Assembly: GCA_964642915.1 (NCBI GenBank)
Contig: CAZXPE010000002.1
Location: 1 to 46,580, forward strand
Direction of reading: 5' to 3'
Length of the DNA: 46,580 bases
From: an uncultured bacterium
GTDB lineage: Bacteria > Methylomirabilota > Methylomirabilia > Rokubacteriales > CSP1-6
The notes under the pieces are model-generated. The model was not told the origin of the DNA. It saw only the letters and a list, made by a program, of their open reading frames with translations, and ran no database searches. A program made the translations under genes and the position numbers. Below are positions 5,850 through 26,900 of the stretch, piece by piece. Numbering within the stretch: the stretch's first letter is position 1; every line of letters begins with the position of its first letter.

Positions 5850-5861
5850 CGGCGTGTAACC

Positions 5862-8639: not shown

Positions 8640-8641
8640 CA

Positions 8642-10430: not shown

Positions 10431-10441
10431 TGTTCCCCTCG

Positions 10442-10852
10442 TCAGAACGGCAGGATCGCGTCCTGCTCTTGGAGAAGCCTCACCATCCCCTCGGTGTCGA
10501 GCAGCTCAGGCTTCAGCACTAGGTCGTCGAGGGTGAGGCTCCTCTCGTCCAGTGAGCGCTTGTCGGTATAAAAGCGCTCGATCTCAAAGTCGGGGAGGGC
10601 CGGGTAGGTCTTGGAGAGCGGCTTCATCTCAAGGCCGCTCGGGTCCTGCCCGCTCACGATGGCGAAGATCCCATCACCCTGAAAGGCCACTGAGATCTGG
10701 ATCGTCCCCTGCATCTGATAGGCCCCCATGATCAGGAGAGTCTGGAGCCCCTCCCAATTGTAGAGCGACCCGTAGGGAGCCTTGCGAAAAAGGACCAGCA
10801 CCTTCCTCGGAGAGCCTTCTTTGGGTTTTTCCTCGTTCTCGACGTGCTCCAT
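10442..10852 (-). CDS. dsrF: DsrF (TusC-like) sulfur-relay subunit
   Basis: 136 aa, DsrE/F fold pattern (KVLVLFRKAPYGS...VAFQGDGIFAIV). Middle gene of the E-F-H trio. Confidence 0.8.
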   Translation of the reverse strand: MEHVENEEKPKEGSPRKVLVLFRKAPYGSLYNWEGLQTLLIMGAYQMQGTIQISVAFQGDGIFAIVSGQDPSGLEMKPLSKTYPALPDFEIERFYTDKRSLDERSLTLDDLVLKPELLDTEGMVRLLQEQDAILPF

Positions 10853-10863
10853 AGCTCCCCCTC

Positions 10864-11220
10864 TCAGTCGCCGAAGGTGACGAAGCGGTCGGCCTCCTGG
10901 AGAAACTCAGCCAGGTTCCCGAGCCCCGAGATCTTCACGTTGGGAGTGGCGATCTCCTCGTTGAGGCCCCGGTAGGTCGAGTCGGTCACGCAGGCCACCA
11001 GCTTGACCCCCTGCGCCCCCAGATCTGACCAGCGCTTCGAGATCACCCGCTCGCCGGGAGGCTTCATGAACTTGTTGATGTTGTACACCCCGTCGGTGTA
11101 GAAGAAGACGCCGACGATCTCGTGCCCCTTGGCGCGCGCCGCTTTGATGAACTCCCAGGCGCTGTCGGCGGCCTGATGCTGGTACGGCCCCTCCTGAACC
11201 ATCACCCCGATCTTCATCAT
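10864..11220 (-). CDS. dsrE: DsrE (TusD-like) sulfur-relay subunit
   Basis: 118 aa. MMKIGVMVQEGPYQHQAADSAWEFIKAARAKGHEIVGVFFYTDGVYN...KLVACVTDSTYRG (conserved Cys)...ADRFVTFGD. ATGA overlap with the dsrN stop. Confidence 0.85.
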   Translation of the reverse strand: MMKIGVMVQEGPYQHQAADSAWEFIKAARAKGHEIVGVFFYTDGVYNINKFMKPPGERVISKRWSDLGAQGVKLVACVTDSTYRGLNEEIATPNVKISGLGNLAEFLQEADRFVTFGD

Positions 11221-12614: not shown

Positions 12615-12645
12615 GCGCTGAGCCTCGCCTCTTCCTTCCTTCCGC

Positions 12646-12885
12646 TCAGGCTCCTTTCTTCACGTAGTAGATAAAGCGGCCCCCGTCTTCGCGTGTCCCG
12701 AGGAGCGCGTTGTTGGTGCGCTGGCAGAAGGCCGGAACGTCGTCCTTTGACCCCCGGTCGGTGGCGATCAGCTCGATGACCTGCCCCGACTGGCACTGAG
12801 CGATAGCTTTGGAGAGTTTCAGGATCGGCATAGGACAGGCCAAACCAGTGCAATCGAGGGTGAGATCGGCAGCAGGTTCTGTCAT
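12646..12885 (-). CDS. tusA: TusA/SirA-family sulfur carrier
   Basis: Start at ATG 12885 (MTEPAADLTLDCTGLACPMPILKLSKAI, CPxP motif), preceded by GGGAGG 5 nt upstream. The longer ORF-track form (to 13041) runs through the AT-rich promoter region. Confidence 0.85.
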   Translation of the reverse strand: MTEPAADLTLDCTGLACPMPILKLSKAIAQCQSGQVIELIATDRGSKDDVPAFCQRTNNALLGTREDGGRFIYYVKKGA

Positions 12886-12916
12886 GGAAACCTCCCGAAT
12901 TTGAAGGCTTGGGGAC

Positions 12917-12988
12917 TCAACGGACCTCTCAACTCTTTTGACGTGACTTATCGCCGATACGTTAGCCCAGGTCAATGAAGCATTGACA
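12917..12988 (-). promoter_or_regulatory. Candidate sigma70 promoter plus conserved leader box for the tusA-dsr operon; overlapping palindrome in the divergent intergenic region
   Basis: Minus strand: TTGACC (12975-12970), 18-nt spacer, ATAAGT (12951-12946), then GAGTTGAGAGGTCCGTTGA (12935-12917). Perfect palindrome GTCAATG-aag-CATTGAC at 12971-12987 overlaps this -35 and a plus-strand TTGACA (12983-12988). The same blocks recur at 24058-24127. Confidence 0.5.
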
Positions 12989-13095
12989 TTAATTTTACAT
13001 GACAATTGATCTATTTCAAGGGCCCCTCCAGGGGTCGTCACTCCTGCAAGCCAGCGGCGCCGGATCGTGGTAGAGTCCTATAGGGCCGCTCAGCC

Positions 13096-14097
13096 ATGGC
13101 GCGTTTCATCTCCGTCATCATCCCCAACCGAAACGGCGAGGCGACGATCGGCAAGTGTCTCGAAGCCGCCCTGGCCTCGCGCTACGAGCCCTTCGAGGTG
13201 ATCGTGGTGGATGACTGCTCGGAGGACCGCTCCGTCGAGATCATCCGGGAGTTCCCCTGCAAGCTCCTCCGGCTGGAGAAGCACTCAGGGGCGTCTAAGG
13301 CGAGAAACGTCGGCGCGTCGAACAGCGCGGGGGAGGCCCTCTTCTTCACGGATGCCGATTGCCTTCTCCTGGAGGACACCCTTGCCGTCGCCGACAGGAC
13401 CCTCGCCGCCACGGGCCGGGGCGTGGTGGTGGGCGGCACTTACACGATGGCGCCTCACGACAAGGGCTTCTTCAGCCTCTTTCAATCCGCCTTCATCAAC
13501 TACTCTGAGACCAGGAACGCCGGGCGCCCTGACTACATAGCCGCCCACGCGATGGCCATCGACGCCGAGACCTTCAGGAGGAACAAAGGCTTTGCCGAGG
13601 AGTTCCTGCCGATCCTGGAGGACGTGGAGATGAGCCACAGGCTCAGGAGGGCGGGACATCGGCTGGTCATAAACCCCGAGCTTACGGTCCAGCACATCTT
13701 CAACTTCTCGTTGCTGGGATCACTTCGGAACGCGCTGAGAAAATCCCTCTACTGGACCATCTATTCCCTCGGGAACAGAGACCTGCTCGCAGATTCAGGA
13801 ACGGCTTCAACCGGACTCAAAATCAACGGCGCGGCATACGTCCTCACTGCTCTTTCCCTGATTCTCGGGCTCTCGACTGGACAGATGCTCTTCCTGTCTC
13901 CCGTCCCTCCAGTGATCGCTCTCAACCTTCTCGTGAACGTGGGATTGATCCGGGCCTTCTTCCGCGCCGGGGGACCCGCTTTCGCCGTCGCAGCGGCGGC
14001 GTACTACGTCATGGCCTATCCGCTGGCCGTCGGAGCGGGCGCCCTGGTCGGCGTCCTGAGATACCTCGCCCTGAGCGCAAGGCCGGGGGAGGCATGA
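13096..14097 (+). CDS. Family 2 glycosyltransferase with C-terminal membrane segments
   Basis: 333 aa. ISVIIPNRNGEATIGKCLEAAL...EVIVVDDCSEDRS...FFTDADCLL (GT2 DxD region). Hydrophobic C-terminal third. Confidence 0.8.
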   Translation: MARFISVIIPNRNGEATIGKCLEAALASRYEPFEVIVVDDCSEDRSVEIIREFPCKLLRLEKHSGASKARNVGASNSAGEALFFTDADCLLLEDTLAVADRTLAATGRGVVVGGTYTMAPHDKGFFSLFQSAFINYSETRNAGRPDYIAAHAMAIDAETFRRNKGFAEEFLPILEDVEMSHRLRRAGHRLVINPELTVQHIFNFSLLGSLRNALRKSLYWTIYSLGNRDLLADSGTASTGLKINGAAYVLTALSLILGLSTGQMLFLSPVPPVIALNLLVNVGLIRAFFRAGGPAFAVAAAAYYVMAYPLAVGAGALVGVLRYLALSARPGEA

Positions 14098-15179
14098 CCA
14101 TGAACTCGCCGCTTCGCCACCTCGGCTCCATCATCTGGAAGAGAAGGCCCATCCATCTCACATTTTTCGTAACCCGGAAATGCGACATGAGGTGCCCCTT
14201 CTGCTTTTACCTCAGGGGGTCGGAGAAGCGCGAGGCCGATGACGCCGAGCTGTCTCTGGACGAGATACGGAAGATCTCAGGCTCGCTCGGCAATCTCCTC
14301 TGGCTCGCGTTCTCAGGCGGCGAGATCTTCCTGAGAGATGACCTCGTCGAGATAAGCCGGCTTTTCTATGACAGCAATAAGCCTGCGATCATGCTCTACC
14401 CCACCAACGGCCAGCGCCCGCAGCGCATTCGGGAGGCGACCGAAGAGATCCTCAAATCCTGCCCGGGGAGCGTCGTCGTCGTGAAGCTCTCCCTCGACGG
14501 GCTCTACGGCGACCACGACGCCCTCAGGGGGAAACGCGGCAGCTTTGAGAAAACCATGGAAACCCACCGCCTGCTCGGAGAGCTGCCCGCCCGATATCCT
14601 CACTTCGAGCTTGGGATCAACACGGTCCTCTGCTCTGAGAACCAGGACAGGATGGAAGAGATGGTCGAGTTCGTCAGCGGCCTGGAGCACGTCAGGACGC
14701 ACACCATCTCCATCGTCCGCGGGGACCTCCTTGACGAGAGCTATAAAAACGTGGACGCCTCGAGCTACGAGCGCGCGATCCGCAGGCTGGAGAAGGACGT
14801 AAAAAACGGCCCTCGCCGCCTCTACCGCTTCAAGGGGGCCAGGTTGAAGGCGGCTCAGGATTCATTGCAGCGCCGCCTGATCCATCGCACGCTGCTCGAG
14901 AAGAAACGGCTCACATCCTGCTACGCGGGACGGCTGAACCTGGTCCTCACTGAGACCGGAGAAGTCTATCCCTGCGAGATGCTCTCCGAGAGCTTCGGGA
15001 ACGTCAGGAACTATGATTATGACCTTAAGAGGATCGTCAGGTCGGATAGAGCCGTGGCGATCACGCGGTCGATCAGTGACGGCCGGTGCCACTGCACTCA
15101 CGAGTGCTACTTTATGACGAACATCCTCTTCAACCCGAGGTGGTACCCCGCCCTGGCCCGGGAATATCTGCGGCTGTGA
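14094..15179 (+). CDS. Radical SAM protein with C-terminal SPASM/twitch-like Cys cluster
   Basis: 361 aa. CDMRCPFCFY (CX3CX2C) near the N-terminus, C-terminal ...CYAGR...YPCEML...GRCHCTHEC. ATGA overlap with the GT2 stop. Confidence 0.8.
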   Translation: MTMNSPLRHLGSIIWKRRPIHLTFFVTRKCDMRCPFCFYLRGSEKREADDAELSLDEIRKISGSLGNLLWLAFSGGEIFLRDDLVEISRLFYDSNKPAIMLYPTNGQRPQRIREATEEILKSCPGSVVVVKLSLDGLYGDHDALRGKRGSFEKTMETHRLLGELPARYPHFELGINTVLCSENQDRMEEMVEFVSGLEHVRTHTISIVRGDLLDESYKNVDASSYERAIRRLEKDVKNGPRRLYRFKGARLKAAQDSLQRRLIHRTLLEKKRLTSCYAGRLNLVLTETGEVYPCEMLSESFGNVRNYDYDLKRIVRSDRAVAITRSISDGRCHCTHECYFMTNILFNPRWYPALAREYLRL

Positions 15180-16656
15180 GCCCCCTCCAGCCGGCCGGCG
15201 TCGCGGCTTCTTTGCCGCGCCTCTCGAGCAGGCCCTTCCCTGCCCACAGCCAGAAAAGGCTCCTGAGGCCCATGAAGGCGGCGACCAGGTCGTCGAGGTT
15301 CCTGATCCCGAAAAGCCTCCTCAGCAGGAACGAAGGCCTGGAATAGAACCTCCGAAACGCGATCTGGCGGAGCGCCAAAATCTTCTGTCTCGTCATGCTG
15401 TCGGGGACAAAAGCAGCGCCCTGGTAGGTGTAGTCGGAGAGGTCGCCTGAGACCGTGCCGTATTGCTCGCGGCGGTCGTAGAGGTCGGTCCCGGGAAACG
15501 GCGTGAGGGCGTGGAAGTTCGCGATGTCGGGGTCTAGCTCCAGGGCGAACTCGATCGTCCTCAACCCTTCTTCAAATGTCTCCCCGGGGATGCCGAAGAG
15601 AAACGGCGTGCTGACCTTGAGGCCGGCTTCCTTCGCAGCCCTGACGGCCCTGCGGGTCTGGTCGAGGGTGATCCCCTTCCTTATCGCGTTCAGGTTCTTC
15701 TGGACTCCGCTTTCGGCGCCGAGAAGGATCGCCCAGCAGCCGGCCTCCTTGAAGGCCCTGAGGAGAGGCGCGTCCACCTGATTGACGCAGGCGGAGGCGA
15801 ACCACACGACGTCAAGCCGGCGGGCCTTGATCTCCAGAGCGATCCGCATGGCCCTCTGGTAATCGGCGGCGAAGGAGTCGTCGAGGAACTTGATCTCCCT
15901 GTAGCCCTGACCGACGCACAGCTCGATCTCCTCCAGGACGTTCTCGACGCTCCGGTAGCGTACCCCCCTTGCGCCGCCCTTTCTCTCCCTGTCTATCTGG
16001 AAGCAGAATAGGCACCGCCGGCTGCACCCTCTCGAGGCGATCATCACCGCCACCGGCTTCCTCCTGTATGTGCCCGGCGGGGGGATGTAGCGGCCCGCGT
16101 CGCCCAGAAGCTCCCTGGCCGGAAACGGGATGGAATCGAGGTCGGAGATCAGGGGCCGCGGCGGGTTCTCAACCACCTCGTCGCCAGACCTGAAAACGAC
16201 TCCCGGCACTCCTTCAAAGCTCTTCCCGCCCTGGAGCCTTTCGACCGCTTCGACCACCGTCCACTCGCCTTCGCCTGTCACCGCCGCGTCAAAGCTCTCG
16301 CCTCCCCGGCCCAGGCATCCCGCCCGCTCGGCTATCGGATAGGGCCCGCCGGCGCAGGTGAAGATCTCCCGGTCGAGCCTCTTCACATCCGCCGCGGTTC
16401 TGAGGGCCTTCGGCCAGCCGAACGCGGTGGAGTAGATGCCCGCGAACTCAGGCCTCCACTCGCCGACCCCGGCCATGATCTCCTCGTGGGTCATGAACGC
16501 TCCGTTGAAGAACCTCACCTCGTGACCGGCCTTGAGCAGGCATGAGGCCACGTACAGGGTGCCCAGGGGCTGCCAATAATTGATCTGCGAGCCTGCCGTC
16601 TTCGAGGAGAAAATCTCCAGCGGCACCCACGCAGGTATGATCAGGGCGCACTTCAT
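15130..16656 (-). CDS. B12-binding-domain radical SAM protein (class B)
   Basis: 508 aa. N-terminal Rossmann-like B12-binding region (MKCALIIPAW...LGTLYVASCLLKAGHEVRFF), radical SAM core RGCSRRCLFCFQ. Its 3' end overlaps the convergent radical SAM gene by 50 nt. Confidence 0.8.
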   Translation of the reverse strand: MKCALIIPAWVPLEIFSSKTAGSQINYWQPLGTLYVASCLLKAGHEVRFFNGAFMTHEEIMAGVGEWRPEFAGIYSTAFGWPKALRTAADVKRLDREIFTCAGGPYPIAERAGCLGRGGESFDAAVTGEGEWTVVEAVERLQGGKSFEGVPGVVFRSGDEVVENPPRPLISDLDSIPFPARELLGDAGRYIPPPGTYRRKPVAVMIASRGCSRRCLFCFQIDRERKGGARGVRYRSVENVLEEIELCVGQGYREIKFLDDSFAADYQRAMRIALEIKARRLDVVWFASACVNQVDAPLLRAFKEAGCWAILLGAESGVQKNLNAIRKGITLDQTRRAVRAAKEAGLKVSTPFLFGIPGETFEEGLRTIEFALELDPDIANFHALTPFPGTDLYDRREQYGTVSGDLSDYTYQGAAFVPDSMTRQKILALRQIAFRRFYSRPSFLLRRLFGIRNLDDLVAAFMGLRSLFWLWAGKGLLERRGKEAATPAGWRGLTAADIPGPGRGTTSG

Positions 16657-18062
16657 CAGCGCGTCCCCGCCAAGGCCGGCTCGTCCCGATCAGCTTCCGG
16701 CGCCGGGCCGCCCCCCTCCAGGATCCGCTCAGCCGCCTCGATGCCTGACGCGATCGCGTGGTCCATGTTCATGTAAGCGAACGCTCCGCTCCTGCCGGCG
16801 ATGTGCAGGTTCTCAAACCGGGCCAGGTAGTCGCAGATCCTCTCCTGGTGCTCCCTGTACCCCACCTCGAACAGCGGATACGCGTTCGGGATCCGCAGAA
16901 CGACGGCGTCCTCGACTTCACGCCTTCCGATGAACCCCAGCCTCTCCAGATGAGCGGTCGTGGTCTCGATCAGCTCCCCGTCTGTCGCCCCCCAGGTGCC
17001 GTCGCCGCGTGAGCAGAAGTGCTCCGCCACCAGGAGCGTCTTACCCTCCGGGGCCATCTTCGGGCTCCAGTTAGTGGGCTCGTGGATCCTGCTGAACGGG
17101 ATCCGCCGATCGGGCACGTAGATCCAGGTCTGGTCGGTGACCCTCTCGCAGCCCACCATGACGGCCACGACAACGAGGTCACGGTATCTCAGCTTCGAGG
17201 CGGCTTCGAGCACGCCCTGAGGCGCCTTCGGATGGAGCATCCTCACGAGCGACGTGAGAGGGATCGTGGAGATAAACTCGTCGCCCTCAAACGCGCGCTC
17301 CCGGCCGCCGTCCTCGGCGATCACGCGCTCAACCCGCGCGGCGCTATGCTCCAGCCTCTCGGCTCGGGCGCTCGTGAGAACACGGTTTCTCAGGTCGATT
17401 TCCTCCCTCATCCGTTCTGCGATCCGGCCTATACCCAGAGGAGGGTAGAGGAACTCCTCAGCGAGAGTCGCCACACCCTCGCCTGCCGACCCGAACAGGG
17501 CCTTCCTGATCGCCACCCCCAGGGAGAGCCCCTGGATGCGCCGCTCAGCCCACTCCATCGAGATCCGGTCGCACTCGATCCCCCAGACCTTCTCGCTGTA
17601 CTCCTTGAAATAGATCCTGAACATAGTGCGTCCAAACCGGCCGACGACCCACTCTTCGAGAGAGCCGTCCCGCGGACTTTTGAAGCTGCTCTTGAGGCGC
17701 TCAACCGCGTAATCGAGGAGAATGCGGGCCGTCGTCCGAACCCCCAGGCCGGAGACGGCGTTCAGCGGCTTCAGCGGATAGTCGATGTATCTCCGGCCCA
17801 GAAGAATCTGGCTCTTGCGGGGTACCGCCGCGAGCTCACGGCCCATCAGCTCGCGCAGGAAGGCTTCGATCCGCTTGTCTTTAGTGAAGAACCTGTGACC
17901 GCCGAGATCAAACCTGAAGGCGCCGTGGGAGACCGTCCTTGCCAGCCCTCCCACGGCGGAGTCGCGCTCCAGCACCAGCACGCTCTTGCGCGCCCGTGCA
18001 AGAGCGACACCGGCGGACAGCCCGGCGAGGCCGCCGCCGAGAATGACTGTGGGATTGTTCAC
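16656..18062 (-). CDS. NAD(P)/FAD-dependent oxidoreductase (amine-oxidase / UDP-galactopyranose-mutase-like fold)
   Basis: Dinucleotide motif VILGGGLAGLSAGVAL...VLERDSAVGGLA. Probable GTG start at 18062 forms a GTGA overlap with the stop of the Gly-rich ORF. The Arg-rich extension to 18329 in the ORF track is an alternative-frame reading of the Gly-repeat DNA. Exact start uncertain. Confidence 0.7.
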   Translation of the reverse strand: MNNPTVILGGGLAGLSAGVALARARKSVLVLERDSAVGGLARTVSHGAFRFDLGGHRFFTKDKRIEAFLRELMGRELAAVPRKSQILLGRRYIDYPLKPLNAVSGLGVRTTARILLDYAVERLKSSFKSPRDGSLEEWVVGRFGRTMFRIYFKEYSEKVWGIECDRISMEWAERRIQGLSLGVAIRKALFGSAGEGVATLAEEFLYPPLGIGRIAERMREEIDLRNRVLTSARAERLEHSAARVERVIAEDGGRERAFEGDEFISTIPLTSLVRMLHPKAPQGVLEAASKLRYRDLVVVAVMVGCERVTDQTWIYVPDRRIPFSRIHEPTNWSPKMAPEGKTLLVAEHFCSRGDGTWGATDGELIETTTAHLERLGFIGRREVEDAVVLRIPNAYPLFEVGYREHQERICDYLARFENLHIAGRSGAFAYMNMDHAIASGIEAAERILEGGGPAPEADRDEPALAGTR

Positions 18063-18370
18063 TCCGAGGGTATCACCGCGGCACCGGGAGCTGCTCCCGA
18101 CCCTCTCCCGGCGGGCGCCCCGTAACCTCCGGCCCCCGCTCCGGAACCTCCCGCGGGCGCCCCGTAGCCGCCTGCTCCAGCCCTGGAGCCCCCGGCGGCG
18201 GCCCCGTAACCCCCGGCTCCGCCTCCGGCACCCCCGCCGTACCCTCCGCCTGCCGCCGTCACCCCGGCGCCCGAGGTCTTCGTGCCGGTCAAGGCCGACA
18301 CGCTGTAGCCGATCAGGAAGCTGGTCCACGCCACGACTATCAGAAGCACGACCCAGAGGCTAGTTTTCAT
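18059..18370 (-). CDS. Small membrane-anchored Gly/Ala-rich repeat protein (GGYG repeats), hypothetical
   Basis: 103 aa. MKTSLWVVLLIVVAWTSFLIGYSV (one TM/signal-anchor helix), then ...GGGYGGGAGGGAGGYGAAAGGSRAGAGGYGAPAGGSGAGAGGYGAPAG... Sits 13 nt after the tusA-like stop. Coding status is unproven in GC-rich repeat DNA. Confidence 0.45.
   Translation of the reverse strand: MKTSLWVVLLIVVAWTSFLIGYSVSALTGTKTSGAGVTAAGGGYGGGAGGGAGGYGAAAGGSRAGAGGYGAPAGGSGAGAGGYGAPAGRGSGAAPGAAVIPSE
18111..18236. repeat. About three imperfect tandem copies of a 42-nt unit
   Basis: Units begin gcgggcgccccgtaacctcc... (18111), gcgggcgccccgtagccgcc... (18153), gcggcggccccgtaaccccc... (18195). On the minus strand they encode the GAGGYGAPAGGS repeats. 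Confidence 0.7.
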
Positions 18371-18383
18371 CGCTCACCCGCTC

Positions 18384-18632
18384 TCAGACCGCTTTTTTGA
18401 TCTTCCACTTGTACTTGCCGCTCTCCGCGATCTTCTCGAGGATCTCGTCGCCCCTAGCATCGCACATCGCGGCAATGGACTCAGCGGAAGAGGGGTTGTC
18501 GAAGAGCAGCTCCAGCGTCTCGCCCACCTGCATCTTCTCGAGGGCTTTCTTAGTGTAAAGCTGCGGGTGGGGGCAGACGTACCCAGTGACGTTCAGAGAA
18601 TAGGTGCCGTTGGACTTTTTTTCGAACTTCAT
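18384..18632 (-). CDS. yeeD: TusA-like sulfur carrier (YeeD/TsuB type) partnered with YeeE
   Basis: 82 aa. ...LNVTGYVCPHPQLYTKKALEKM... (CPxP motif). Lies 31 nt downstream of the YeeE/YedE gene. Confidence 0.8.
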   Translation of the reverse strand: MKFEKKSNGTYSLNVTGYVCPHPQLYTKKALEKMQVGETLELLFDNPSSAESIAAMCDARGDEILEKIAESGKYKWKIKKAV

Positions 18633-18663
18633 CGCCTCACTCTGCCTCCTTTTCTCTCCGATG

Positions 18664-20091
18664 TTACAGCTCGCAAACGGCCATCTCTTTGGCCATCCGC
18701 CTTTCAGTGTACCAGTTAAAGAACTTCACTCCAAGATAGGCCCCGCCGATCATGCCTATCCCGAACAGCCACCCCGACACGTCGCCCTGGGAGACCCTGA
18801 CGAAGAAGGCCCCGACGTTGCACCCGAGGCCCAGCCTGGAGCCGATCCCCATCAACGCCCCGCCGATGATAGCCCACATAGTAAGCTCCATTGTGGGAGC
18901 CTTCCACTTGAACTCGTTGTGCATGAGCGCCATCACGGCGGCGCCGCCGATCAGGGCGATGGACATCCAGTCGGCCGGGTTGAGGAGGGGGTTGGGAATG
19001 CCGTTGTTGAGGCCGAAGAAGATGTTGTCCATGTTCTGCCAGCCGAGCCTGTTGAAGACCCAGCCGACCCACTGGGCCTCCTGGGTCGTCACGTACCAGT
19101 ATCCCGGGTCGAACACCGTCCCCTTAGCCGAGAGGCCGAAGGTGAACCCCATGCGGGTCATCAGCTCCCCGAAGTTCTGCACCCCGAACTTAACCTGAAG
19201 CCCCTTCATCACGAACATGTGGAGCCCGGCCGCGATCCCGAGGAAGAGCCCGGCTATCGCCGTCCTCTGTGACGCCATGACCATGCTCCAGTAGCCAGCC
19301 AGATCAGCCCCGATGCCGCCGGCGGGGAGCCCCGCCTTCTTCTGCTTTGCCATATACGGCTTCCTTACCCAAACGATGTAGATCCAAGACAGGATCAGCG
19401 CCGCGGGCAGGACGATCCCGACCAGGACGTTACCGACGTACGAGGCGATGAACGGGTTGGAGATCCCCAGCAGCTCGCCGAACGTCTTCACAGGCAGGTC
19501 CCACACGTACCCGGCGAGATACTGGTCCATCCATCCGTCTCCGGCGTTGATGGCCGCGGGGAGCTTCTTTGCCACCGCCGACTCGTACCAGGACCTGGGT
19601 ACGAGCTTGTTGGTCCATCCGCCGATCGCCACGAAGGTCGCCTGAGACACGCTGATGGACAGAAGCACCACCATGGCGACCCCGTTCCCCTCTCCGGCCT
19701 TATAGAGAGAGCCCGACGCGCAGCCGCCCGTGAGCACCATCCCCACCCCGAAGATAAGCCCGGCGATCACCGCATGGATGCCGTACGGGGCGGAGTGGAA
19801 GGTGCTCATCCCCGTCGCCGTGACAAAGGCGGAGACGGCCCCGAAGAGTACCATGGCGATCATGATCCCCACGGCCATCCTCGGCACCCCGACGGCGAAC
19901 AGGTCTCTGAACGCCGACGAGAAGCAGAACCTCCCGTACTGGAGGCACATCCCGTAGATGAACCCGAACCAGAGATAGGCCGAGAGATAGACGTAATACT
20001 CGCTCATCATGTAGGTCACGATGCTGATGAGCGAGAGGAACCCCACGATGACGAAGATCCAGAACTGATTTTTCCTGCTCACCGTCTCCAT
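18664..20091 (-). CDS. yeeE: YeeE/YedE-family membrane permease (thiosulfate/sulfur-compound uptake type), long form
   Basis: 475 aa, polytopic. Conserved Cys-containing loops (GRFCFSSAFRD, TGGCASGSLYKAG, LGLGCNVGAFF) are characteristic of YeeE/YedE. Confidence 0.8.
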   Translation of the reverse strand: METVSRKNQFWIFVIVGFLSLISIVTYMMSEYYVYLSAYLWFGFIYGMCLQYGRFCFSSAFRDLFAVGVPRMAVGIMIAMVLFGAVSAFVTATGMSTFHSAPYGIHAVIAGLIFGVGMVLTGGCASGSLYKAGEGNGVAMVVLLSISVSQATFVAIGGWTNKLVPRSWYESAVAKKLPAAINAGDGWMDQYLAGYVWDLPVKTFGELLGISNPFIASYVGNVLVGIVLPAALILSWIYIVWVRKPYMAKQKKAGLPAGGIGADLAGYWSMVMASQRTAIAGLFLGIAAGLHMFVMKGLQVKFGVQNFGELMTRMGFTFGLSAKGTVFDPGYWYVTTQEAQWVGWVFNRLGWQNMDNIFFGLNNGIPNPLLNPADWMSIALIGGAAVMALMHNEFKWKAPTMELTMWAIIGGALMGIGSRLGLGCNVGAFFVRVSQGDVSGWLFGIGMIGGAYLGVKFFNWYTERRMAKEMAVCEL

Positions 20092-20092
20092 C

Positions 20093-21847
20093 TCAATTCG
20101 CCTCCGTAGCCGGCGGGCTCTCCGCCGGCAGGTAGACCCTCACGAGGGTCCGATACTGAAACCGATCATCCGACGTCAAAAACTCCCTCGACAGGCGATG
20201 ACCATCGATCCTCCGCTCGATCTGCTCTGTCAGCGGCTGGCCGGCATCGGCGGAAACAACCACTACGGCGCCCTTCCCGCTCGGGTCCGCGGTCGCCGGA
20301 GCATAGTACTTCGGGGTTCGGAACTCCCACGTGAACCTCAGCGGCGATGTTTCGATTTCCTGCCGCGAGGGGAGCTGCGCGGGCAGGGGCCGGTACACAA
20401 TCCGCTTCCCGGCGAACAGATCGAGCAGGGGGACCGAAACCGCCGGATTGACGACAGAGCGCGCCTGAGGAAGAGTGAAAACCTCCACGGCTTCGCCCTC
20501 AACGGTGTTGAGATATTCTCCCGCGTCCTTCAAGTTTACGGCGCTCATCCTGCTCAGGTATGGCAGGTACGCGAAGAGCGCGACAGCCAGGGAAGAGGCC
20601 ACGGCGCAGGACACGGCGAACCTCCTGGCCTCGGCGCTCCTGATCTCCCTCAAACCGTACGAGGCCATCAGCGCGAGCATCGGGAAGACCACCAGGATGT
20701 ATCTGATCCGCTCGATCTGAGCCGCGACAACCAGGAGCAGGAGCCAACTGATGATGGCGTACCTCAGGTCCCTTTTTCTGATTGCGGCGAAAATCGAATA
20801 GGCCCCCGCCACGGTGACGAGCGGGTGTATCTGGAAGAGGAACGTGGAGGCGAAGCTCTCTCGCCACCGCCCCAGCCCGGGCGCCTGGTAGCTCCGGAGC
20901 AACCCGATCTGCTCGAAGATCACGTCGTGCTTCACGAGCACAACGGCCCCCGCGAGCGCGGCCGAAGCCGCCAGGAGCGCAGCGCCGCGCCTAAGCGCCC
21001 GCCCCGGTTCCTCACGAAGTCGTACCAGAAAGATGATGAGCACAACCGTGAGCGACGGCCACGTGGAGTACTTGGACAGGAAGGCGAGAGTCACTGTCGC
21101 GGAAGACAGAGCAATCCATCCGATTCCCCCGTTACCAAGGGCCTTGATCGCCGTGAACACGGCCGCGGCGAGGAAAAACATCGCGGGGACGTCAACGAGC
21201 ATCAGCGGCACCTGAGTGAACAGATAGGGCATGGCGAGGAGAAGAGCGCCTGCGCACGCCCCCACGGTCGCGTCCCACAGAGTTTTTCCGATCAGGTAGG
21301 TGAGCACGATTGTCCCCGAGAAGAGGAGCGTCGTGAAGACCTGGATGGGAATTCTGGTCTCCCCGAACGCGCTGAAGATCACGCCGTAGAGAAAGGGAAC
21401 GAGCGGCAGGTCGGTCCACGCCGAGACCTCCCGGCCCCACTCACTGAGAAAATACCCGGCGCCGTAAAGCTCGAGGTGCTTGGCCTGGGTGAAGTACCTC
21501 GCTGCGTCCACGATCACCTCGGGCTCCCTCCAGAACACGGCCGCCATAGCGAAGGAGAAGAAGAACAGCGCCACAACGGGCCTGAGAGCGGAGATGGAAA
21601 CCTTCGTAAGCGCGTACGCCAGCGCTACGCCAACGACGAGCGCGGCGCTGACTCTTGCAACGTCAGCGCCGGCAAACACCCACTGCCAGCTCGTCAGCCT
21701 GTTGTCATCCAGCCCGCGCAAGAGGTACTGGGTGTGAAACGTCGCCACGGCCGCCAGGGAGATCACGGCGGCCACGACCCTGTCGGTGCTTTCCCTGTTG
21801 GATTCGTGAACGGCAATCGCCTCCGATGACGGCGCGCACCTCACCAC
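20093..21847 (-). CDS. Large polytopic membrane protein, GT-C fold / GT39 (ArnT/PMT_2)-like glycosyltransferase candidate
   Basis: 584 aa. About 12 predicted TM helices, then a soluble C-terminal domain of about 150 aa, with an early loop GLDDNRLTSW. The family call is by overall architecture only. GTG start overlaps the upstream stop by 7 nt, and its stop is 1 nt from the yeeE start. Confidence 0.5.
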   Translation of the reverse strand: MVRCAPSSEAIAVHESNRESTDRVVAAVISLAAVATFHTQYLLRGLDDNRLTSWQWVFAGADVARVSAALVVGVALAYALTKVSISALRPVVALFFFSFAMAAVFWREPEVIVDAARYFTQAKHLELYGAGYFLSEWGREVSAWTDLPLVPFLYGVIFSAFGETRIPIQVFTTLLFSGTIVLTYLIGKTLWDATVGACAGALLLAMPYLFTQVPLMLVDVPAMFFLAAAVFTAIKALGNGGIGWIALSSATVTLAFLSKYSTWPSLTVVLIIFLVRLREEPGRALRRGAALLAASAALAGAVVLVKHDVIFEQIGLLRSYQAPGLGRWRESFASTFLFQIHPLVTVAGAYSIFAAIRKRDLRYAIISWLLLLVVAAQIERIRYILVVFPMLALMASYGLREIRSAEARRFAVSCAVASSLAVALFAYLPYLSRMSAVNLKDAGEYLNTVEGEAVEVFTLPQARSVVNPAVSVPLLDLFAGKRIVYRPLPAQLPSRQEIETSPLRFTWEFRTPKYYAPATADPSGKGAVVVVSADAGQPLTEQIERRIDGHRLSREFLTSDDRFQYRTLVRVYLPAESPPATEAN

Positions 21848-22011
21848 GAGATGACCTTGTCGTGGGCGAAGATCTCGTCAACGATCTTCTCATGCGGAAT
21901 TTCCCGCTTCGACAGGTCGATGACAGTCACCTCGTGCTCGCGGGATTGCGCGTTGATGATCCTCTGGCAGAGATCGTCCGGCCCGTCTGTCAGGAGGTAG
22001 AGTATCTTCAT
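21841..22011 (-). CDS. Miniature DsrH/TusB-like protein (56 aa)
   Basis: Below the ORF-track size cut-off, hand-translated: MKILYLLTDGPDDLCQRIINAQSREHEVTVIDLSKREIPHEKIVDEIFAHDKVISW. The C-terminus matches the DsrH/TusB ending (..hdkv.sW). GAGGAGA lies upstream. Confidence 0.55.
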   Translation of the reverse strand: MKILYLLTDGPDDLCQRIINAQSREHEVTVIDLSKREIPHEKIVDEIFAHDKVISW

Positions 22012-22027
22012 CGGCGCGTCTGTCTCC

Positions 22028-22330
22028 TCAGAGGACGATCACCCGGTCGGCGCTGTTGTTCATCACCGCGTTGTGATACTGGCTTCCTCGCACGATCTTG
22101 TCGGGCAGCCCCTCCGCCCGAACGCGGCACGTCTCGGCGCTGTGCTCGCAGAGGCTCATCGAGACACCCGGCAGCCCGCACAGGTCTGTGAACGTCGCGC
22201 TCTCGAGCAGCCTCGTCCCCTCGTCCATTGCGAACAGGATGACCTGATGCCCCTTCGACACAGCGGCCCTGGTAAGCCCCGTAATGTCGTGAAGGTGCCT
22301 GTCGGAATTGACAAGAATGCCCAGCGTCAC
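22028..22330 (-). CDS. Short DsrE-family protein with conserved Cys
   Basis: 100 aa. MTLGILVNSDRHL...GHQVILFAMDEGTRLL...VSMSLCEHSAETCRVRAEG...ADRVIVL (DsrE/TusD-like layout, Cys in the active-site position). GTG start. Confidence 0.6.
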   Translation of the reverse strand: MTLGILVNSDRHLHDITGLTRAAVSKGHQVILFAMDEGTRLLESATFTDLCGLPGVSMSLCEHSAETCRVRAEGLPDKIVRGSQYHNAVMNNSADRVIVL

Positions 22331-22354
22331 GCTGATCTCTCTCGCTGCCGGCGT

Positions 22355-22630
22355 TCAATAGGGCAGGACGTGGTCATACTGAGGCAGTCTCAGCGCGACC
22401 TCCTCGGTGGAGCAGAATTCCATCCCCTCGCCCTGCCTGTGGTTCGTGTAGATTTTGACTTCGAATTCTTTCATAGTCTCGAGCTGCTTGAGGTTCTCTT
22501 CGGTTTTCCCCAACTCTCTGTCCAGCACGTAGACGTCAACCGTGTCGCCCAGGAGGAGGAGCCCGAGAGACATCCTCAAGGCCTCGCTCTCCCTGTCGGT
22601 GACGAGCACGGCAATTTTTCTTTCAGCCAT
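22355..22630 (-). CDS. Short DsrE/DsrF-family-like protein
   Basis: 91 aa. MAERKIAVLVTDRESEALRMSLGLLLLGDTVDVYVLD...YDHVLPY. The fold call is by pattern only. Confidence 0.45.
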   Translation of the reverse strand: MAERKIAVLVTDRESEALRMSLGLLLLGDTVDVYVLDRELGKTEENLKQLETMKEFEVKIYTNHRQGEGMEFCSTEEVALRLPQYDHVLPY

Positions 22631-22722
22631 TCCTTCTCGCTTACCCGCCCGACACCCGCAGCGCGGGTACCCGGACCCCCGGGGGAGTCTATCCCGCGGG
22701 GGCCGCGCGACGAGCCGGATCC

Positions 22723-23730
22723 CTACCGCTTCTTCAAAAGCTCCTCCATCTGAGCTTTCAGTGTCTCAAGCTCCCTGAGCGCCGAGTTCACCTTGACGAA
22801 GTCGTAGTAGCTCGCGCTCTCCACAGGAAGGTCGGGCCGGCTCCCCCAGACGATCCAGGAGTCGTCGTAGTTCCTGATCTTCTCGAAACCGAGCGACCTG
22901 AGCGCCAGGTAGGTCAGCGTCGAGCGGGTCCCTGTCTGGCAGTAGGCCACGACTTCTTTCTTGGGATCGAGGGCTTTGTAAAGATCCTTGAGGGCCGTGG
23001 CGTCCTTCGGCGCCATGCCGTCACGGTTGGTCACCGTCTTCTCTGCCAGCTTCTTCTCCGTCTCAGGGTCCACCCAGTTCTGCTCGTAAGGGATCAAAAT
23101 GGCCCCGGGGATGTGACCGCCACGGACTGCGCGGATGTCGTCTCCCGAGAACTCCCTGGGTGTCCTGGCGTCCAGGATCTGGACGTTCGGGGTTTTCAAG
23201 TTGGCTTTGACATAATCAGTCGTGGCGAGGCGATCCGCCTTGACCTTGGCCACGAACTTGGCAGGCGGGAGCTTCTTCTCCTCGGCGGTCATGGGCTGCT
23301 TGGCGGCCTTCCAGTCGTCGATCCCTCCCCAGTAAGCTTTAACCTTCTCGGCCCCCAGGTACTCGAGAATCCAGAACGGGACCGACATGTTGGTGTTGCC
23401 CTTGTTACCGTAAACAATGATCTCCTGGTCGCGGGTGATCCCCGCGCCGCCCAGTATATCTTCCAGCTTCTTTACCGGGAGGATCCGAGCGTCCACATCT
23501 CTCAGGACGACGAGCGCTCCCCTGCCTCCCAGGTTGATGGCTCCTGGGATGTGTCCCTCCTTGTACCCCGCTTCCGACCGGACATCCAGAAGGACCACTC
23601 CGGCCTTGTCCTTCTGCTTCGCCACATAGTCTGTGTTCACTATCACCTCGGCTCCGAAGGCAGAGCCTGCCAGAGCGAAAACCAGCGCCAAACCGATCCA
23701 GGTTCCAATCGTTCTCTGCTGATTCATCAT
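22723..23730 (-). CDS. Secreted tandem-rhodanese-domain sulfurtransferase
   Basis: Start at ATG 23730 (MMNQQRTIGTWIGLALVFALAGSAFGAEV, a signal peptide), preceded by AGGAGG 7 nt upstream. Two rhodanese domains, the second with active-site loop AYCQTGTRS. C-terminal coiled tail ...LETLKAQMEELLKKR. Confidence 0.85.
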   Translation of the reverse strand: MMNQQRTIGTWIGLALVFALAGSAFGAEVIVNTDYVAKQKDKAGVVLLDVRSEAGYKEGHIPGAINLGGRGALVVLRDVDARILPVKKLEDILGGAGITRDQEIIVYGNKGNTNMSVPFWILEYLGAEKVKAYWGGIDDWKAAKQPMTAEEKKLPPAKFVAKVKADRLATTDYVKANLKTPNVQILDARTPREFSGDDIRAVRGGHIPGAILIPYEQNWVDPETEKKLAEKTVTNRDGMAPKDATALKDLYKALDPKKEVVAYCQTGTRSTLTYLALRSLGFEKIRNYDDSWIVWGSRPDLPVESASYYDFVKVNSALRELETLKAQMEELLKKR

Positions 23731-24158: not shown

Positions 24159-24596
24159 TTACCTATTTCCCCTACGCGACCCGCCGGGCCGGGGTGCCCG
24201 ACGCCGAGGAGGGGTTGTTCTTTCAGGTGTCTGTTCCACCTGTTCGTCGAGGGCGCGCAGGATGTCCACCACTGAAACGATGCCGACCACCTCTCTCCCA
24301 GCGAGCACCGGCATCGCTCCGAAGCGCCGCTCGCGGAAGAGGCGGGCGGCCTGGCGGATGGGAGTGTCGGGAGAGAGGACGAAGACCGGCCGCGTCATGA
24401 TCTCCCTCACGGGGATAGCATCGCTCCTGGCCTCGCGGAGGTCGCGGTCCGAAACTATCCCGACGAGGAGACGCTCCCCGTCCAGCACCGGAAGGTGGCG
24501 GACCCGCTCCCGCCGCGAGAGCCGGCGCGCCGCTCCCACCGACATCCCCGGCTCCGCCGTGACCACCGGCTTTGCCATTACTTCCGCCACCGTCAT
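24159..24596 (-). CDS. CBS-pair domain protein
   Basis: Start at ATG 24596 ([20 protein letters not shown]...[20 protein letters not shown]...[15 protein letters not shown]...[19 protein letters not shown]). Basic, Pro/Arg-rich tail. Confidence 0.8.
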
Positions 24597-24673
24597 GGCG
24601 CCGATCTCTCCCGCGCCATCGCTCCCATGAAGGGTTCTCCCTGGCAAGGGTACATGGTAACCTTATTATAATC

Positions 24674-26890
24674 ATGACGCTTCAGCATGCCGAGATCCAA
24701 GCCATCGTGAGAGGTGACCACAGCGACCCGTTCGCCGTCCTGGGGCCTCATCTCGTCAGCGGAGAGAGGGGGCGAGCTGTGGCAGTTCGGGCGTTCCTTC
24801 CCGGCGCTGAGACAGCGCGTGTGATCCCCCTCGATCCCGCCCCCCGCCCGCGAAAGATGGAGCGGATCCATCCTGACGGATTTTTCGAGGCGCTCTTCCC
24901 CGGCCGTCGAGCGGTGTTTCCCTACCGCCTCGAAGTCGTCGATCATCAGGGAGAGGCCAGAGTGACAGAAGACCCCTATCGCTTCCCGTCAACCCTGAGC
25001 AACTACGATCTCCACCTCCTGGGGGAAGGAACGCACTACAAGGCATACGAGAAAATAGGGGCCCACCCTCTGGTGGTAGATGGGGTGCCCGGGGTGGCTT
25101 TCGCGGTGTGGGCCCCCAACGCGCGGCGGGTCAGCGTCGTCGGCGACTTCAACCAGTGGGACGGGCGGTCCCACCCGATGCGCTGTCATCCAGGCAACGG
25201 CATCTGGGAGATTTTTGTCCCCGGACTCGCCGAAGGGGCGCGCTACAAATTCGAGATCCTATCGCGTTCGGGAAAGCCTCTCGCCCTCAAGGCCGACCCT
25301 TACGCTTTCTCCTTCGAGCTGGAGACGCCACGCACCGCCTCAGTGGTCTCGGCGCCTGACGGCTACTCCTGGGGGGACGCCGACTGGATGTCTGAGCGCG
25401 CGCGGCCCAACGCGCTGGATAGCCCCATCGCCATCTACGAAGCCCACCTCGGCTCATGGATGCGGGTGCCCGAGGAGGGAAACCGCTTCCTCACTTATCG
25501 CGAGCTGGCCCCCAAGCTGGCGGCCTACATCGGGGAGATGGGGTTCACCCACGTCGAGCTTCTCCCCGTGATGGAGCATCCGTTTTACGGCTCCTGGGGG
25601 TATCAGACCATCGGCTATTTCGCCCCTACCCGCCGACACGGGAGCCCCGCCGACTTCATGTTCTTGGTGGACACCCTCCACCAGCACGGGATCGGAGTCA
25701 TCCTGGACTGGGTCCCGGCCCACTTCCCGCGCGACCCTCACGGGCTCGCCTACTTCGACGGCACCCACCTCTACGAGCACGAGGACCCGCGCCAGCGCGA
25801 ACACCCCGAGTGGGGAACCCTCGTCTTCAACTATGGCAGGAACGAGGTGGTCAACTTCCTCATCGGTAACGGCCTCTACTGGCTTGAGCGCTATCACGCC
25901 GACGGGCTCCGGGTGGACGCCGTCGCCTCGATGATCTACCTCGACTACTCGCGCGGCGCCGGAGAGTGGGTCCCGAATCCCCACGGCGGGAACGAAAACA
26001 TGGAGGCAATCGCTTTCCTCAAGCGGTTCAACGAGGTCGCCTATCGCTACCACCCGGGCGTCATGACCATCGCCGAGGAGTCAACAGCCTGGCCGATGGT
26101 CTCCCGCCCGACCTGGCTCGGCGGCCTGGGCTTCGGCTTCAAGTGGAACATGGGATGGATGCACGACCTTCTGGACTACATGAGCCGCGACCCGGTCCAC
26201 CGCAAGCACCACCACAACCAGCTCACCTTCGGACTTCTCTACGCGTGGCACGAGAATTTCATCCTCCCTCTCTCCCACGACGAAGTCGTCTACGGCAAGG
26301 GGTCGCTCCACGGCAAGATGCCCGGAGACGACTGGCAGAAGTTCGCAAACCTGCGCTCCCTCTACGCCTTCATGTACGGCCACCCTGGAAAGAAGCTCCT
26401 CTTCATGGGGGGCGAGTTCGGCCAGACCCGCGAATGGAACCACGACCGGAGCCTCGACTGGCACCTCCTCGAGAGGGGGCCATACCACCGGGGGATCCAG
26501 AGGCTCGTCAGGGACCTGAACCGGCTCTACAGGAGTGAGCCGGCCCTTCACGAGGTTGACTTCGACCACGCCGGCTTCGAGTGGCTCGACCCGAACGACT
26601 GGGAGCAGAGCGTCGTCTCATTCGTTCGCCGGGGGAAGGACCCCGGAGAGTTCGTCCTCGTCGTCTGCAACTTCACCCCGGTCCCGCGTCACGGCTACCG
26701 CGCCGGGGCGCTCGTCGGAGGCCATTACCGCGAGATCCTGAACACCGACTCCGGCGCCTACGGCGGGAGCAACGCGGGAAATTCAGGCGGCGTCCGCGCT
26801 GAGCCCGTTCCGTGGCAGGGACGGCCTTTCTCGCTCGCCCTCACCCTGCCGCCTCTGGCCGCCATCTTCCTCAAACCCGACAGCCGCTGA
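24674..26890 (+). CDS. glgB: 1,4-alpha-glucan branching enzyme (GH13)
   Basis: Start at ATG 24674 ([26 protein letters not shown]). Classic GlgB blocks [59 protein letters not shown]. Confidence 0.95.
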
Positions 26891-26900
26891 GCCTTCGGCC

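Follow-up and report, generated by a model that had tools for sequence, protein, structure and literature searches.

An extended YTD-type sulfur-transfer cluster with co-inherited glycosyltransferase, flavoenzyme and radical SAM genes in an uncultured Rokubacteriales bacterium and in other phyla

A 46,580-nt stretch of contig CAZXPE010000002.1 (assembly GCA_964642915.1), from an uncultured Rokubacteriales bacterium of the CSP1-6 lineage, is referred to here as the window. It carries a cluster of ~10.6 kb in which genes for a sulfur relay are interleaved with genes for a GT-C membrane glycosyltransferase, a flavin adenine dinucleotide (FAD)-type flavoenzyme and a B12-binding-domain radical S-adenosylmethionine (SAM) enzyme (Table 1). 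Ten tightly packed open reading frames (ORFs) run on the minus strand from the rhodanese gene to the B12-radical SAM gene (15130-23730), and recomputation of the intergenic gaps returned exactly the spacings of the original prediction, namely 92, 24, 16, -7, 1, 31, 13, -4 and -1 nt in that order. The stop of the 56-aa gene overlaps the start of the GT-C gene by 7 nt, the gene encoding the YeeE/YedE-family transporter (hereafter YeeE) begins 1 nt beyond the GT-C stop, and the GTG start of the flavoenzyme gene overlaps the stop of the gene for a small membrane protein with GGYG repeats. On the opposite strand, Pfam analysis confirmed the predicted GT2 glycosyltransferase and SPASM radical SAM genes, the stop of the former overlapping the start of the latter by 4 nt. 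The rhodanese ATG at 23730 is preceded by a strong AGGAGG Shine-Dalgarno sequence. Terminator-like sites are not enriched by a consensus scan (7 versus 8.7 expected in shuffled sequence), and the sole promoter-like site within the block is weak (9/12 positions, 20096-20068); the sequence therefore gives no sign that the block is split into separate units.

Table 1. Genes of the cluster and of the adjoining dsr set in the window
Feature	Position (nt)	Strand	Basis
Secreted tandem rhodanese	22723..23730	-	Pfam Rhodanese, two stretches, E 5.7e-39
91-aa small protein, candidate DsrF type II subunit	22355..22630	-	ORF; synteny and literature
100-aa DsrE-family protein, candidate DsrE type II subunit, Cys61	22028..22330	-	PDB profile match
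56-aa small protein, candidate DsrH type II subunit	21841..22011	-	Synteny and PMC13293266
GT-C membrane glycosyltransferase, ArnT/PMT-like, 584 aa, cluster hub gene	20093..21847	-	Pfam PMT_2, AF2, Foldseek
Long-form YeeE/YedE-family sulfur transporter, 475 aa	18664..20091	-	Pfam Sulf_transp
TusA-family sulfur carrier, 82 aa, CPHP motif	18384..18632	-	Pfam TusA, E 9.8e-19
GGYG-repeat single-pass membrane protein, 103 aa	18059..18370	-	ORF; homologues after tusA
UGM-like flavoenzyme, 468 aa, GTG start	16656..18062	-	NCBIfam NF005548; PDB 4DSG
B12-binding-domain radical SAM enzyme, 508 aa	15130..16656	-	Pfam Radical_SAM and B12-binding
SPASM radical SAM enzyme	14094..15179	+	Pfam Radical_SAM and SPASM
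GT2 glycosyltransferase, hydrophobic C-terminal region	13096..14097	+	Pfam Glycos_transf_2, E 5.6e-27
Second tusA	12646-13041	-	dsr set
DsrN-like amidase	11217-12614	-	dsr set
Canonical type I dsrE	10864-11220	-	dsr set
Canonical type I dsrF	10442-10852	-	dsr set
Canonical type I dsrH	10137-10430	-	dsr set
DsrT-like RsbRD_N protein	9631-10146	-	dsr set

Relatives of the GT-C protein were sought in 185,579 genomes, one per species; 343 stretches code for one, and from these the best 80 loci were retrieved. A scan of metagenome contigs with the B12-radical SAM enzyme provided the best 80 of 356 confirmed relatives, and the window proteins were mapped onto the GT-C-anchored genome loci by tblastn combined with all-against-all ORF clustering. 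The GT-C protein has more than 1500 homologues, the best 120 of which are 50-88% identical to it, and the window proteins share 50-83% identity with their counterparts in the loci. A common gene order was found to recur: 91 aa, 100 aa, 56 aa, GT-C, YeeE, TusA, small peptide, (USP), FAD and B12-radical SAM, with the SPASM and GT2 genes kept on the opposite strand after the last of these. The block is carried by Rokubacteria, Nitrospirota/Thermodesulfovibrionia, Acidiferrobacterales and other Gamma-, Beta- and Alphaproteobacteria, and Actinomycetes, while Acidobacteria have it in a rearranged form. The joining of a sulfur set to the GT-C, FAD and B12-radical SAM genes, which might have been unique to this contig, is thus one conserved unit that also takes in the GT2 and SPASM genes opposite. 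An accidental operon fusion or an assembly artefact on the window contig has next to no probability, given that the same block was met across 80 genome loci and 80 loci from metagenomes, which belong to several phyla and stem from independent projects, and the original prediction's alternative of two unrelated modules fused into one operon is rejected on the same ground.

Among the 34 GT-C loci with enough flanking sequence, 26 combine sulfur genes with glycan/radical SAM genes, five have sulfur genes only, three have neither and none has glycan genes only. B12-anchored loci with enough flank show the FAD, (USP), TusA, YeeE, GT-C and small genes upstream, and where at least 7.9 kb of upstream flank was available, the GT-C gene was present upstream in all loci but one (L143). 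Several Nitrospirota loci have the 91-aa gene on the far side of the GT2 gene, which leaves the glycan genes flanked on both sides by DsrEFH-like genes. The gene immediately before GT-C encodes a secreted single-domain rhodanese in 18 genome loci, an insertion seen in many Nitrospirota loci. Minimal units consisting of rhodanese, 100-aa DsrE-like protein, 56-aa protein and GT-C with no other partners were found in five loci (L011, L033, L034, L051 and L072), and another minimal form comprises rhodanese, GT-C, SPASM and GT2. With dozens of unrelated genomes sharing the block, chance is far from sufficient to account for the arrangement, and as both the co-occurrence and the rearrangements preserve the association, the linkage is selected, judging from the best 80 loci of each scan. 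The high identities across phyla, 65-71% for the B12-radical SAM enzyme, suggest that the cluster has moved horizontally as a unit.

Two further genes accompany the block at a subset of loci. A universal-stress-protein (USP) gene of ~153 aa lies between the GGYG-protein and FAD genes in many Nitrospirota and Betaproteobacteria loci (e.g. L016:13934-14398) and is absent from the window and the Rokubacteria loci. A PAS-LuxR-type protein of ~217-238 aa with a Cys-rich GQPFC..GC..A segment is encoded upstream of the 91-aa gene in proteobacterial loci and in the Nitrospirae loci L008 and L014 (overall L003, L005-L008, L013, L014, L041 and L043-L047), and is a candidate sulfur- or redox-responsive regulator.

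Turning to the sulfur half of the cluster, the tandem rhodanese carries a Sec-type signal peptide, and its second domain has the active-site loop CQTGTR, as read from the sequence; its orthologue heads the block in Rokubacteria and lies behind the GT2 gene in Proteobacteria. YeeE matched the Pfam model Sulf_transp (E 2.8e-37, residues 53-453 against a 310-position model) and fell below the cutoff of all NCBIfam YedE/TsuA models. Its gene lies directly 3' of the GT-C gene in 31 of the 56 loci with enough flank; in Rokubacteria and the majority of proteobacterial loci the two genes are 5-58 nt apart. TusA is kept after YeeE across loci. In the GT-C-to-FAD interval of L058 and L060, a short YeeE of canonical length (354-361 aa) and a 75-76-aa protein, assigned to TusA by position and size only, replace the 475-aa YeeE and TusA; evidently the transporter half is exchangeable, with the GT-C, FAD and B12 genes staying in place.

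The 91-, 100- and 56-aa proteins, as well as the GGYG protein, showed no match in Pfam or NCBIfam. A profile built from 46 orthologues of the 100-aa protein nonetheless gave DsrE of A. vinosum (2HY5_A, E 0.0099) as its best PDB match. In this profile alignment Cys61, which is invariant in the 46 sequences, falls on the cysteine of the DsrE segment vvCvaAaqrrG, which, from PMC13293266 and our own numbering, we take to be Cys78 of type I DsrE. Many of the 1552 homologues of this protein carry PF02635 or are named 'DsrE family protein'. The 91-aa protein has 3113 homologues, those listed being unnamed or 'hypothetical', and its AF2 model (pLDDT 91) has a four-unit beta-alpha fold. A Foldseek search with this model returned no match at E <= 0.001 and only generic Rossmann-like matches at E > 0.01, the best full-length match being 2PD2 (TM-score 0.59-0.68, E above 0.001); since these matches are generic, its DsrF label is drawn from synteny and the literature. 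PDB profile searches with the 91-aa and 56-aa families gave nothing or noise, and profile-profile comparison of these families with the DsrE-like family was uninformative (probabilities of 0.2-5%). The 56-aa protein was detected by tblastn in 52 of the 80 genome loci. All three small genes are adjacent in the window and each is conserved in other genomes. Among the DsrF, DsrE and DsrH labels originally proposed for them, sequence comparison ties only the 100-aa protein to its label, DsrE, and all three remain candidate type II subunits.

Comparison with the literature showed that the sulfur genes, rather than forming an undescribed uptake set, match a published module by which sulfane sulfur is fed to DsrC/DsrAB for energy metabolism (PMC13293266), and they adjoin dsr genes in the window. 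The yedE-tusA-dsrE-like-chp-chp or 'YTD' cluster has been proposed as a marker of sulfur disproportionation (PMC13293266), and its small proteins form DsrEFH type II, a sulfur transferase acting between TusA and DsrC (Plum-Jensen et al. 2026, PMC13293266). DsrEFH type II was reported from 985 genomes and is in bacteria always syntenic with yeeE and tusA; its subtype 1 occurs mainly in Nitrospirota, Pseudomonadota and Actinomycetota, and a heterotrimer taking sulfur from TusA for DsrC has been demonstrated for the Electronema aureum proteins only (PMC13293266). The cluster described here likewise occurs in Dsr-type sulfur metabolisers and has TusA together with a transporter of the YeeE family; of its three small syntenic proteins, one has an invariant DsrE-type cysteine, and the small genes of the window escape standard Pfam and NCBIfam models. 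As the carriers belong mainly to the three phyla named for subtype 1, we infer that the three small proteins are of this subtype.

Several features set the cluster apart from the classical YTD arrangement. The GT-C, UGM-like flavoenzyme, B12-radical SAM, SPASM radical SAM, GT2, secreted rhodanese and GGYG-protein genes are interleaved here. Gene order is another difference, since the GT-C gene separates YeeE from the small genes, which are upstream. The small proteins add up to 247 aa (an estimated ~27 kDa) versus 33 kDa for the Electronema heterotrimer, and the window additionally has a canonical type I DsrEFH. The terms 'glycosyltransferase', 'radical SAM' and rhodanese are absent from the main text of PMC13293266, and full-text literature searches found no publication on this linkage of yeeE, tusA and dsrEFH with glycosyltransferase and radical SAM genes, or on the GGYG protein. 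The locus is therefore an 'extended YTD' architecture, made of a known sulfur half, an undescribed glycan/radical SAM half and a GGYG-repeat protein.

The GGYG protein, originally described as a Gly-rich membrane peptide, is a conserved membrane protein with repeats that are predicted to be periplasmic, and it travels with YeeE-TusA rather than with the radical SAM genes. A conserved N-terminal transmembrane helix (MK..LW.V..VV.AW..FL.GYS) is followed by 1-14 repeats of GGYG(A/S)P type, mostly ending in GGYG[K/R/H]. The protein reaches ~150 aa and is shortest, at 50 aa with a single unit, in Beta- and Gammaproteobacteria; a form of it directly follows tusA in 49 of 69 tusA-containing loci. Most of the remaining 20 loci, chiefly of Acidiferrobacterales and Alphaproteobacteria, have two small single-helix peptides with GY and YY motifs. 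Such tandem peptides replace the GGYG protein between tusA and the FAD gene in L013, L032, L044, L046, L054 and L055, which are from Acidiferrobacterales, other gammaproteobacterial and alphaproteobacterial carriers, and have tails of the form EPGYF...(Q/E)(E/D)YY(K/R)xL. Nitrospirota variants (L019:15123-15365 and L035:15638-15874) have a second transmembrane helix and a basic C-terminus (KKK; GRK in L035), which places the GGYG segment outside the cytoplasm as a predicted periplasmic loop. The protein is present in L038, where the FAD, B12, SPASM and GT2 genes are missing, and it was not found in any examined locus lacking YeeE-TusA; it therefore belongs with the transporter. L020-type loci have the GT-C, SPASM and GT2 genes without it, and it is encoded in the Actinomycetes locus L064. 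There is some resemblance to the sulfur globule envelope proteins SgpA, SgpB and SgpC of purple sulfur bacteria, small exported proteins tied to Dsr-type sulfur oxidation. Sgp proteins are rich in regularly spaced glycine and aromatic residues. The GGYG protein differs from them in keeping a membrane anchor and, in proteobacteria, in being reduced to as few as 50 aa with one unit. Small size, strong hydrophobicity and signal peptides have been reported for the Sgp proteins (PMC10386293).

The GT-C protein matched Pfam PMT_2 with 41.4 bits (cutoff 26.1). An AF2 model based on 56 homologues (pLDDT 86.8, pTM 0.90) shows a multi-pass fold with a periplasmic C-terminal domain, for which Foldseek gave the ArnT structures 5F15 and 5EZM as best matches (prob 1.0, TM-score 0.50-0.54), followed by STT3, PglB, ALG9, AftA and PMT. 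Sequence identity to ArnT in the structural alignment is only 14-15%, and a profile search against PDB sequences gave no match, so that structure comparison alone succeeded. In the 56 sequences D47 is invariant and D48 nearly so, within an LDDNRL motif just past the first transmembrane helix (H8-42). A look-up found the exact 584-aa sequence not on record. Judging from the fold and the co-encoded GT2, the enzyme would use a polyprenyl-phosphate-linked sugar donor. The GT-C fold, the PMT_2 match and a membrane-associated GT2 nearby recall systems of ArnT with an ArnC/GtrB-type GT2, which differ in that the GT2 of the cluster is nearer MftF and TIGR04283 than ArnC, GtrB or DPMS, and that flippase, formyltransferase and deformylase genes are missing here. 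The occurrence of the cluster in an Actinomycetes genome, and of the GGYG protein in the Actinomycetes locus L064, speaks against a GT-C acceptor restricted to an outer membrane.

The flavoenzyme was predicted as an FAD oxidoreductase, which holds as far as its being a flavoenzyme is concerned; more specifically, it resembles UDP-galactopyranose mutase (UGM). It matched Pfam Amino_oxidase/NAD_binding_8 and passed the cutoff of NCBIfam NF005548 'hypothetical protein' (438.9 versus 389 bits), and its best PDB match was the Trypanosoma cruzi UGM 4DSG (E 3e-20, residues 5-448 against 12-452). In this alignment the positions of GGH, PF-x-R, YP, aromatic-x-Y and N-x-DH correspond, which we take to be the substrate-site motifs of UGM. 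The protein stays below the bacterial UGM equivalog TIGR00031 (55 versus 303.75 bits). Glf/GlfT systems pair UGM with a GT2 galactofuranosyltransferase, and GT-C enzymes of Corynebacterineae use polyprenyl-phosphate-furanose donors. The cluster is akin to these systems, as its flavoenzyme aligns with the eukaryote-type UGM over almost its whole length and is co-encoded with a GT2 and a GT-C; it differs in the two additional radical SAM enzymes and in the score of the flavoenzyme below the bacterial UGM cutoff.

The B12-radical SAM enzyme showed Pfam matches to Radical_SAM (E 2.6e-22) and B12-binding (E 9e-11) and has the motif C-SRR-C-LF-C. Its best NCBIfam match was HpnJ and its best PDB match AprD4 (6FD2, E 1.6e-28), and it remained under every named equivalog cutoff, with 175.2/577.6 bits for HpnJ, 155.9/481.35 for BchE and 113.1/500 for AprD4. 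HpnJ and AprD4 act on sugar rings. The GT2 is co-encoded as HpnI is with HpnJ; the differences from these pathways are the scores far below cutoff, a GT2-HpnI match of E 0.0097 and the absence of hopanoid or aminoglycoside genes nearby. The SPASM enzyme has its core motif from about residue 30, without a long N-terminal extension, and all of its NCBIfam matches are below cutoff. For the GT2 the nearest NCBIfam models were MftF (E 1.9e-24) and TIGR04283, both again below cutoff, and its matches to ArnC (E 0.002) and DPMS (E 2.8e-4) cover the N-terminal part only. Membership in the arsenosugar (TIGR04283), HpnJ, BchE, AprD4 and mycofactocin families was considered and rejected, all scores being below cutoff. 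In the window the B12-radical SAM and SPASM genes converge and their 3' ends overlap by 50 nt (15130-15179); at other loci the two genes are ~100 nt or more apart.

The locus is reminiscent of the mycofactocin genes mftA-F in combining a short peptide that contains Tyr with a SPASM radical SAM enzyme, a flavoenzyme and a GT2 resembling MftF. By analogy to mycofactocin or pyrroloquinoline quinone (PQQ), the GGYG protein would be a precursor with tyrosines on which the SPASM enzyme acts, the flavoenzyme serving for oxidation, the B12-radical SAM enzyme for methylation and the GT2 for glycosylation, yielding a redox cofactor or modified peptide for sulfur metabolism. This is quite improbable in our judgement. 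MftF is indeed the best NCBIfam match of the GT2, several peptide maturases, MftC and PqqE among them, are weak matches of the SPASM enzyme, every one of the repeated GGYG units contains a tyrosine, and the GGYG[K/R/H] end is usually conserved; yet the family matches are far below cutoff (86.4 versus 280 bits for MftF, 47.5 versus 265 for MftC), and the SPASM enzyme, starting directly at the radical SAM core, leaves no room for a peptide-recognition domain. No peptidase or chaperone ORF was found among the conserved families of the loci, and equivalents of MftB and MftE are lacking. The flavoenzyme is in detail UGM-like and not an amine oxidase. Finally, the peptide is anchored in the membrane with its repeats predicted to lie in the periplasm, away from the cytoplasmic radical SAM enzymes, and co-occurs with YeeE-TusA rather than with the SPASM and GT2 genes. 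On account of this topology and co-occurrence pattern, a reading of the GGYG peptide as precursor of a ribosomally synthesised and post-translationally modified peptide was set aside.

A second alternative, in line with the original prediction, is that the relay feeds persulfide sulfur to the radical SAM, flavin and GT enzymes, which would build a sulfur-containing sugar, lipid or peptide, such as a thiosugar, for export to the envelope by the GT-C enzyme. The very tight co-inheritance, the bracketing of the glycan genes by DsrE/F/H-like genes, the overlap of the 56-aa stop with the GT-C start, the single nucleotide between GT-C and YeeE, the minimal rhodanese/DsrE-like/56-aa/GT-C units and the periplasmic single-domain rhodanese directly before GT-C in 18 genome loci would all fit such a product. 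In addition, radical SAM enzymes with auxiliary clusters are able to insert sulfur. However, neither radical SAM enzyme of the cluster matches a sulfur-inserting family at cutoff (MiaB-type models reach only 23-36 bits), there is no sequence mark of a step forming a C-S bond, and nothing was found that shows the incorporation of sulfur into a lipid, glycan or peptide. The relay proteins are, moreover, described as a dissimilatory route to DsrC (PMC13293266), the cluster adjoins dsr genes in the window, and the secreted rhodaneses suggest bulk periplasmic sulfur as the source. We therefore regard a thio-product as unlikely.

It is also conceivable that the two halves are functionally independent and share no more than their regulation, the glycan genes remodelling the envelope in a general way, with effects on surface charge, attachment to elemental sulfur or protection against stress, each time sulfur metabolism is activated, and having no direct partnership with the transporter. 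The USP gene inside the block in Nitrospirota and Betaproteobacteria and the PAS-LuxR regulator at the head of proteobacterial versions agree with this proposal, as do lone GT-C homologues in L028, L062 and L074 and classical YTD clusters without the glycan half. It is opposed by the GT-C to YeeE order, which Rokubacteria and the majority of proteobacterial loci maintain at a spacing of 5-58 nt, and by the DsrEFH-II genes that bracket the glycan genes. Moreover, no orthologue of the B12-radical SAM enzyme with enough flank was found outside the cluster context, and carriers of the cluster include both diderms and monoderm Actinomycetes. Overall, shared regulation alone seems to us a poor bet.

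We propose instead a composite cluster in which the sulfur relay is combined with a periplasmic glycoconjugate, possibly formed on the GGYG protein, that serves sulfur uptake; we hold this proposal tentatively, its chances being a little under even. It builds on the observed gene content, active-site motifs, GT-C fold and co-inheritance of both halves. In the sulfur half, the secreted rhodanese would collect periplasmic sulfane sulfur, which the long-form YeeE would carry across the membrane; TusA and then the DsrE-type Cys61 of the small-subunit complex would relay it in persulfide form to DsrC and the Dsr system, a direction of flow that follows PMC13293266. In the glycan half, whose putative sugar chemistry is modelled on the nearest enzyme families, the UGM-like flavoenzyme would provide an unusual, probably furanose, nucleotide sugar, the membrane GT2 would load the sugar onto a carrier or primer, and the B12-radical SAM and SPASM enzymes would tailor it. 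On the periplasmic face, the ArnT-fold GT-C enzyme could then transfer the sugar to an acceptor, for which the co-encoded GGYG-repeat protein is the likeliest candidate, as it is the one periplasm-facing, cluster-specific product in both diderm and monoderm carriers that is not an enzyme. Its topology, its presence in monoderms and diderms and the constant adjacency of GT-C and YeeE favour a connection of the two halves through this protein, and the resulting glycoconjugate beside YeeE may help to capture sulfur species or hand them over for import, so that the glycan half would serve the sulfur half.

Some observations weigh against this proposal. Classical YTD clusters work without the glycan half (PMC13293266), which is consequently dispensable for the sulfur relay as such. 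The GGYG protein tracks YeeE-TusA and not the GT-C/radical SAM genes, its co-occurrence with the glycan genes is imperfect, and its choice as acceptor is a guess. The GT2 does not specifically resemble a polyprenyl-phosphate sugar synthase, going by its sequence matches, and the block showed no gene for a flippase. The 91-aa and 56-aa proteins are not tied to DsrF and DsrH by sequence, nor the former by Foldseek, and the loci examined are the best-matching 80 of each scan, out of 343 and 356 relatives.

The route by which sulfane sulfur travels from outside the cytoplasm to DsrC/DsrAB is among the least understood steps of dissimilatory sulfur metabolism. The YeeE-TusA-DsrEFH type II module has been recognised only recently and is a proposed marker that many "sulfate reducers" also oxidise sulfur. 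One large branch of this module, in Nitrospirota, Proteobacteria, Rokubacteria, Actinomycetota and Acidobacteriota, has a GT-C and a GT2 glycosyltransferase, the UGM-like flavoenzyme and two radical SAM enzymes as co-inherited partners and carries the conserved GGYG protein, and gene-marker surveys of "YTD" lump at least two architectures. The cluster offers testable candidates for the missing periplasmic part of Dsr-type uptake and defines well-conserved families without assigned function (GT-C, B12-radical SAM and GGYG protein). A bolder formulation, which we consider doubtful, is that a hitherto unrecognised periplasmic glycoconjugate machine, common to sulfur oxidisers and disproportionators of Dsr type from five or more phyla, is integral to the capture of zero-valent or polysulfide sulfur for YeeE. 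The make-up of this machine is to be viewed with the same reserve: the GT-C enzyme, fed by the UGM-like enzyme, the GT2 and the two radical SAM enzymes, might decorate the GGYG protein or couple a sugar directly to sulfane sulfur. If true, this would answer how insoluble or periplasmic sulfur gets to the cytoplasmic Dsr pathway.

Beyond the GT2 gene, the cluster is adjoined by a set of dsr genes on the minus strand (window 4674-13041), in which dsrM, dsrK, dsrO and dsrP follow the DsrT-like gene, giving dsrN, dsrEFH and dsrTMKJOP beside the cluster; no dsrAB or dsrC was noted among the annotated window ORFs. A canonical DsrEFH thus stands next to the type II-like DsrEFH. Loci L001 and L002 also have tusA, dsrN and dsrE after the cluster, with dsrF in addition in L001, and the nearest relatives of the cluster proteins are from metagenome-assembled genomes of Rokubacteria, for which chimeric Dsr systems have been reported (PMC10504309).

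Weak YedE/FdhT and seleno-rhodanese matches, together with selD in L009 and L028, had suggested a role in selenium metabolism, which was set aside in view of the dsr context and the published sulfur-transfer data. By eye, a SelD-like ORF lies ~240 nt after the lone GT-C gene of L009, followed by ThiF/MoeB-type and JAMM-type-like ORFs, and ~1.2 kb after the lone GT-C gene of L028. In the window, a CBS-pair protein gene (24159-24647, minus strand) is located directly upstream of the rhodanese gene. Downstream of the cluster, genes for a GlgB branching enzyme and a GH57/DUF3536 protein of glycogen metabolism occupy 24572-28379 on the plus strand.

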